Shown: positions 54,469-54,515 of the stretch, in pieces
Position numbering within the stretch: the stretch's first letter is position 1
How the letters are laid out: each line of letters begins with the position of its first letter
IMG/VR virus record: IMGVR_UViG_2565956708_000007
Length of the DNA stretch: 64,000 nt
Source: a virus
Lineage: Duplodnaviria > Heunggongvirae > Uroviricota > Caudoviricetes
Direction: 5' to 3' (one strand)
Position numbers and translations under genes: made by a program
Notes under the pieces: generated by a model
What the model saw: only the letters and a program-made list of their open reading frames with translations
Databases searched by the model: none
What the model was told of the DNA's origin: nothing

Positions 54469-54484
54469 TGACTACTCGTAGAAT
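54469..54484 (+). promoter_or_regulatory. Putative late promoter (TGACT-N5-TAGAAT) embedded in an 11-bp inverted repeat
   Basis: cacaaaTGACTactcgTAGAAT; IR CTCGTAGAATC / GATTCTACGAG 54475-54509. Confidence 0.45.
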
Positions 54485-54515
54485 CGGTTAACACACCAGA
54501 TTCTACGAGGTTTCA

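Follow-up and report, generated by a model that had tools for sequence, protein, structure and literature searches.

An 11-bp inverted repeat joins the late promoter LPsit to the ribosome-binding site (RBS) of pmgC, the first gene of the tail operon, in the 64,000-nt stretch of DNA that was analysed here as a whole (hereafter the window) and whose source is a P1-like phage-plasmid (Punavirus). This arrangement probably, if by no means certainly, represents a promoter-embedded, RBS-sequestering hairpin of the type described for gene e of phage T4, which would insulate the tail operon from upstream transcription. The control of the P1 late genes is usually described as purely transcriptional, with repression by C1 being followed by activation by Lpa. 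If the above reading is true, the repeat would constitute a translational safeguard that makes the expression of the essential pmgC depend on where its transcript originates.

LPsit and the tail operon

The region 53900–55200 of the window is 99.5% identical to phage vB_EcoM-Ro157c2YLVW, and its identity to P1 and P7 (98–99.6%) starts at 54459–54464 and runs rightwards from there. The site aligns base for base with LPsit as annotated in P1 (NC_005856, 46608–46626) and P7 (NC_050152): the -22 region or Lpa box, AAATGACTA, occupies 54466–54474 and the -10 hexamer TAGAAT occupies 54479–54484, both on the plus strand, which bears out the placement of the repeat over the -10 of a late promoter in the preliminary description of this DNA. 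The gap of 4 nt between the two elements is that seen at other P7 late promoters. Lpa-dependent late promoters can be defined by a 9-bp -22 box akin to AAGTGACTT, a gap of 4 nt, a TANNNT -10 and the absence of a -35, and the stretch AAATGACTA-CTCG-TAGAAT (54466–54484) has all of these, in a layout shared with nine P7 late promoters. Transcription from P1 late promoters in general needs Lpa together with the host SspA (PMC10695390, PMC8198154).

The first gene of the LPsit operon is pmgC (54516–55082, plus strand; 188 aa), with 98–99% identity to P1 pmgC and P7 tubA, and the P1 gene has been found to be essential by CRISPRi (PMC10695390). The downstream operon genes, recognised as ORFs and from the P1/P7 annotation, extend over 55093–60074 on the same strand and comprise tub (55093–55704), pmgB (55719–56600) and sit (56682–60074). 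The feature tables retrieved for P1 and P7 annotate nothing over the repeat, be it a stem-loop, a terminator or another feature. Likewise, a literature search, which did not extend to the P1 genome paper, found no description of a hairpin at LPsit/pmgC, and the P1vir RNA-seq paper (PMC8201110) mentions neither LPsit nor pmgC.

The inverted repeat and its predicted fold

The repeat finder recovers the perfect 11-bp inverted repeat with a 13-nt spacer that had been reported earlier: the arms CTCGTAGAATC (54475–54485) and GATTCTACGAG (54499–54509), 11 nt each, are 100% complementary and 13 nt apart. The left (5') arm is made up of the promoter spacer and the -10, i.e., a putative anti-RBS strand inside the promoter. 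The right (3') arm includes the Shine-Dalgarno (SD) motif GAGG (54506–54509), with both ending 6 nt short of the ATG at 54516; thus, its placement in the leader shortly ahead of the start codon, as had been proposed, is borne out. The loop (54486–54498) contains inner GGT/ACC pairs (54486–88 with 54496–98), which prolong the 11-bp stem in the predicted RNA fold. The MFE structures further add an outer helix, in which the strand TGTCA (54460–54464) is predicted to pair with TGACA (54517–54521), thereby covering the AUG; this outer helix is peculiar to the present cassette type and is not conserved in P1, which has ATGAA at its place.

The window has 10 loci with perfect inverted repeats of 11 bp or more whose spacers measure 3–30 nt, as against 0.38 expected from a first-order Markov model, so that the repeat at LPsit is no chance event, though it is one of several. 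The 35-nt hairpin (54475–54509) has a predicted energy of -18.1 kcal/mol (z = -7.0), with none of 200 shuffles being as stable, and the fold in a longer context reaches -28.9 kcal/mol (z = -5.5). What emerges is a stable predicted RNA helix with the SD in its 3' strand. Rfam 15 gives no match at 54460–54520 even at E values up to 1; in the window, C4 and c4-a1b1 alone pass the gathering score, as isrK scores 43.7 bits where 50 are required, and these three map to the minus strand farther upstream.

The upstream cassette

The likely source of read-through RNA is the co-directional, sim-like accessory cassette that precedes LPsit (53191–54457, plus strand), with ORFs at 53255–53929 (224 aa) and 53981–54457 (158 aa). 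It begins with sequence that aligns to PsimA/PsimB (~53191–53283, plus strand), which are predicted sigma-70 promoters in P1, and homologous ORFs of 155–160 aa in relatives carry the Pfam domain PF27224 (YfjT). The stop codon of the cassette falls 8 nt short of the -22 box and 18 nt short of the left arm, and the terminator scan reveals no terminator-like sites on the plus strand in 52600–54520. Immediately before the PsimA/PsimB orthologues, the sequence AAATCTATTAGAGCATT (53169–53185) aligns with the annotated Oc4 operator of P1; it differs at two positions from the C1 operator consensus read on the opposite strand, and C1 might influence the transcription of the cassette. On the minus strand in the same neighbourhood, Rfam finds the C4 antisense RNA (52902–52987) along with a1b1 targets.

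This setting lends itself to a different reading, wherein the hairpin would define or stabilise the 3' end of the cassette mRNA, acting as a weak intrinsic terminator or a protective stem. The nearness of the last cassette ORF to the promoter, the lack of another terminator and the presence in the window of a stable stem followed by G-UUU are in line with it; however, the terminator scan calls no plus-strand site at the hairpin itself, and the U-run is only 3 nt long and is not conserved, whereas the arms are invariant—in close relatives it is replaced by GTATCC or GTGTCA and in others by GTTGGC, GTTGCC or GTCACT. The combination of a G+C-rich stem and an immediate U-tract, by which intrinsic terminators are recognised, is not seen here, and the terminator reading does not explain why the 3' arm should overlap the SD so exactly. 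Hence, we consider it unlikely as the explanation of the repeat, although such a role could coexist with RBS sequestration.

Turning back to RBS sequestration, the -22 box marks the exact point at which the homology between phages breaks off, with the sequence upstream of it differing from phage to phage. At least seven different cassettes adjoin the constant promoter-hairpin, most of them co-directional with stops 7–160 nt away, and these include P1 sim, the P7 upf50.5/50.0 lipoproteins, the 224-aa and 158-aa ORFs of the window and a 394-aa ORF. Strong hairpins are found only where non-late genes (immI, the lytic-replicon module and a cassette) sit upstream. In the lineages whose PmgC is 65–68% identical, the upf52.7 orthologue precedes pmgC, with a strong terminator and a hairpin that is weak or absent; in elements whose PmgC is at most 62% identical, pmgC comes directly after the orthologue of P7 upf52.7 (tail-tube-like, of the gene 23 late operon), and neither a promoter nor a hairpin is found with these homologues because pmgC abuts the preceding gene. 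The restriction of strong hairpins to loci with non-late upstream genes is consistent with insulation. In P1, simC is followed by a terminator-like site; thus, insulation there would be partly redundant and the correlation between hairpin and neighbour is imperfect.

The succession of an upf52.7 orthologue (ending ...VYNW..) and pmgC is seen at loci L009–L021, L105–L108, L116–L122 and L260–L290, and the block of immI, lytic replicon and accessory cassette appears to have been inserted into a once-contiguous late morphogenesis operon in P1/P7-type genomes. An observation of another kind comes from IMGVR_UViG_2913167280_000003, in which the LPsit box, the hairpin and ~45 nt from the beginning of pmgC occur a second time (ACAAATGATAACTCGTAGAATC...GAGGTGTCAATGACACAACGACAATTACTCGAAGACGTCAAATCCC; L094:54–160) ~1.4 kb upstream of the normal copy (L094:1449); this extra copy is fused to sequence like the 3' part of the 158-aa cassette ORF. 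This suggests a recombination scar, with cassettes being exchanged via the homology in the promoter and the 5' part of pmgC.

Conservation and specificity of the hairpin

The preliminary description had pointed to orthologous promoters as the place where the repeat should be seen, its absence counting against it, and the repeat is indeed present in P1, P7 and more than 80 relatives. No position varies in either arm across the ~83 close loci drawn from genome and viral collections, with metagenome loci agreeing, and in the same ~83 loci variable positions make up 5 of the 13 in the loop, 3 of the 9 in the -22 box and 2 of the 6 between SD and ATG (arms 0/22 versus box, loop and spacer 10/28; Fisher p = 0.0013). 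The contrast weakens (p = 0.019) when the 10 of the 22 arm positions that are constrained as -10 or SD are set aside.

Between lineages in which the pmgC DNA is only ~71% identical, the arms differ at 2 of the 22 positions and are complementary in both. The window, P1 and P7 (PmgC 97–100%) share the arms given above, whereas those in Salmonella, Klebsiella and Enterobacter (PmgC 74–78%) are CTCGTAAAATCGG and CCGATTTTACGAG, with an unrelated, shorter loop and a comparable predicted energy (-17.3 kcal/mol, z = -6.0). Here the -10 has gone from TAGAAT to TAAAAT, and this G-to-A change is matched by a C-to-U change on the other side, the G:C pair giving way to A:U (TAAAAT/ATTTTA) as the right arm becomes GATTTTACGAG. 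Two loci within this lineage (L103 and L104) have the right arm CCGATTTTGCGAG, wherein one pair can form only as U·G (-17.3 kcal/mol, z = -5.8). In the 68% lineage (L105, L106 and L119), there is a 7-bp helix in a shifted register (CUUAGAA/UUCUGAG; -10.8 kcal/mol, z = -3.8), and in the 65% lineage (L107 and L108) the structure is essentially lost (-1.6 kcal/mol, z = 0.25). Loop length likewise differs by lineage, being 13, 7–8 or 16 nt, and a metagenome scan brought up no new hairpin variants. Across an alignment of 15 sequences, 95.6% of the cells are paired, with one pair being GC in nine, AU in five and GU in one, and none of 500 shuffles reaches the observed covariation score, which rests on few independent events (about one change from G:C to A:U, a single wobble and a single shift of register).

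The predicted effect on the translation start stands out at this locus. By the long-minus-short cost of opening the SD, pmgC comes first among the 68 non-overlapping ORF starts in the window (10.5; mean 1.1, SD 2.7) and none of 300 random positions reaches its value. An anti-SD effect is seen at only two of eight P7 late promoters, namely LPsit and, more weakly, LPdar-lydA (z = 3.7). The repeat is absent from the other eight P7 late promoters and is thus not part of the generic Lpa promoter.

One might nevertheless see in the repeat a structure without function, i.e., a quasi-palindrome "corrected" by template-switch mutation or one hitch-hiking on the -10 and the SD. Nearly half of its arm positions are constrained in any case, the compensatory events are few and one lineage has lost the structure. 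Yet the arms have stayed complementary while the adjoining gene diverged, no other start in the window has so extreme an SD-sequestration statistic and hairpin strength tracks the kind of upstream neighbour, all of which make this explanation improbable in our view.

Transcript origin and the predicted gating of pmgC

Transcription by sigma-70 polymerase usually starts 6–8 nt past the -10, and from this usual distance the LPsit start is expected at ~54490–54492, within the loop. With such a start, the LPsit mRNA would be without the left arm and the hairpin would be possible only in RNA begun upstream. RNA folded from 54491 has no significant structure (z = -0.43, with an open centroid), and opening the stretch from SD to AUG is predicted to cost 6.4–6.7 kcal/mol in the late transcript versus 13.8–17.3 kcal/mol in read-through RNAs. 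When the 60 nt preceding the predicted start are shuffled and the rest is left intact, the cost falls from the observed 16.2 kcal/mol to 6.3 ± 1.5 kcal/mol (z = 6.4), with none of the 200 shuffles reaching the observed value. Going by these models, the hairpin would be a property of the read-through RNA and not of the late leader. The leader hairpin affecting translation initiation that the preliminary description had offered thus stands as regards the kind of element, but not for the late transcript, whose predicted start in the loop omits the left arm. Were the start to map elsewhere, the element would be a conserved structure without an assigned role.

A hairpin in the late mRNA leader itself, modulating translation or the 5'-end stability of the LPsit transcripts, seems distinctly improbable. 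The leader certainly includes the right arm and 5' hairpins are known to stabilise mRNAs, but this explanation needs a start upstream of 54475, i.e., upstream of the promoter's own -10, and the RNA from the expected start folds into nothing significant. An alternative pairing in the late mRNA, of the right arm with the direct-repeat copy TACTCGAAGA (54532–54541), reaches only -7.4 kcal/mol, a weak and non-significant value, and the 74–78% lineage does not conserve it. The direct repeat concerned (TACTCGTAGA, 54473–54482, and TACTCGAAGA), by virtue of which codons 6–9 of pmgC are a near-copy of the left arm, is probably there by chance.

That the palindrome acts as DNA, be it as a dimeric-repressor operator (the protein-binding site of the preliminary description) or as a cruciform that would block the -10 and thereby shut off LPsit, is very improbable. 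The palindrome is perfect, overlaps the -10 and is kept in orthologous promoters; however, the distance from the start of one arm (each 11–13 nt) to that of the other shifts from 24 to 20–21 nt between lineages with the arms still complementary, the T opposite G in L103 pairs as RNA and breaks the DNA palindrome, half-sites in the 64 kb number 11 at up to two mismatches against 12.9 expected with the two arms as the only exact ones, other Lpa promoters lack the palindrome and a 13-nt loop disfavours cruciform extrusion, so that the fixed spacing, DNA symmetry and usually several sites of a palindromic operator are wanting.

On the favoured reading of an RBS-sequestering hairpin, RNA entering from the upstream cassette would carry both arms and fold the hairpin, which would bury the SD of pmgC and, in this cassette type, its AUG, and so prevent the translation of pmgC; a ribosome ending at the upstream ORF stop, 18 nt before the left arm, would leave the core stem unmelted. 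The first 75 nt of pmgC are C-rich and G-poor (23 C, 13 G), and when untranslated this RNA would be a plausible Rho substrate, with Rho-dependent polarity probably keeping tub, pmgB and sit silent in lysogens and in early infection. The whole operon would be silenced via its first cistron only if such polarity follows. Once LPsit is activated by Lpa, RNA polymerase would start ~7 nt past the -10, in the loop, and the resulting late mRNA, devoid of the 5' arm and with an open 25-nt leader, would be translated.

Other candidate sites and wider significance

P7 LPdar (L003:34322–34369, minus strand) has the sequence CCTCCT directly past its -10 TACCAT, complementary to the SD AGGAGG of the holin gene lydA, and its upstream segment raises the cost of opening that SD by 4.9 kcal/mol (z = 3.7; 1 of 200 shuffles). 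In 78 close loci the LPdar leader is invariant, and the variant TTCCCTCC lengthens the pairing; a LydA search for further variation returned only 99%-identical loci. LPdar-lydA may exemplify the same design again, here as a guard against transcripts reading through from lydC, and such a use of the promoter as an anti-RBS would prevent premature holin synthesis. The repeat CTCTTCC/GGAAGAG at LP23 is visually suggestive, but the SD opening cost is not raised there (z = -0.4).

Within the window, the second-highest rise in SD opening cost with 60 nt of upstream RNA (8.8 kcal/mol) is at the plus-strand ORF start at 47410 (193 aa), possibly a further case, within the gene 23 late operon, of a structured translation start. 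The third-highest long-minus-short cost (7.5 kcal/mol) belongs to a 281-aa minus-strand ORF starting at 50604, and at 50576–50604 the overlapping AAGTCACTT (minus) and AAGTGACTT (plus) form an inverted repeat resembling late-promoter boxes. At 22137–22189, upstream of an ORF at 22187 (125 aa, in the position of gene 26), is found ACAAATGACTA-GCGG-TAGAATC; its -22 box and -10 are nearly identical to those of LPsit and a strong inverted repeat is lacking, and the P7 feature tables list no late promoter at the matching place.

If true, the sequestering reading would explain how diverse cassettes can be swapped next to LPsit without leakage of tail-gene expression in lysogens. LPsit is in use as a late expression cassette (10.1101/2022.07.24.501295), and constructs could behave differently according to whether the left arm is retained or removed, or when other promoters are placed upstream. 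A bolder possibility, which we put forward tentatively, is that the promoter-hairpin is a portable "insulator" for a hypervariable cassette beside an essential tail operon, acting together with Rho polarity, with the design perhaps being reused at LPdar-lydA. Such an insulator would have arisen, or gained in strength, as an ancestral late operon in which pmgC followed upf52.7 was split by the immI/lytic-replicon module and the cassette. Were this to be true, translational gating by the origin of the transcript would be a general and hitherto unnoticed layer of P1 late-gene control.

Comparison with known systems

The closest parallel can be struck with T4, where the genes e, soc, 49, I-TevI and other homing-endonuclease genes have a late promoter in the 5' strand of an RBS-sequestering helix, such that early or read-through RNAs are translationally silent and late transcripts are without the inhibitory strand (PMC3014915, PMC2988022). 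LPsit-pmgC shares with T4 gene e the location of the SD/AUG in the 3' arm, that of the late promoter in or at the 5' arm and the position of a late gene downstream of genes expressed earlier. The two differ in the promoter, which here combines a sigma-70 -10 with the Lpa -22 box, whereas T4 uses the gp55 element TATAAATA. They also differ in lifestyle: read-through would here come from a lysogenic or accessory cassette of a temperate phage-plasmid, whereas in T4 it comes from early or middle lytic genes. Moreover, the gating is established in T4, whereas here it is predicted from sequence and folding. A second parallel is offered by IS10 and IS50, which reportedly subject externally initiated transposase transcripts to fold-back inhibition. 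These are insertion sequences facing chromosomal read-through, with no activator-dependent promoter and no sequence relationship to LPsit; nevertheless, they follow the logic that is predicted here, whereby transcripts started outside carry the complement of the translation start region, whereas those from the element's own promoter start downstream of it.
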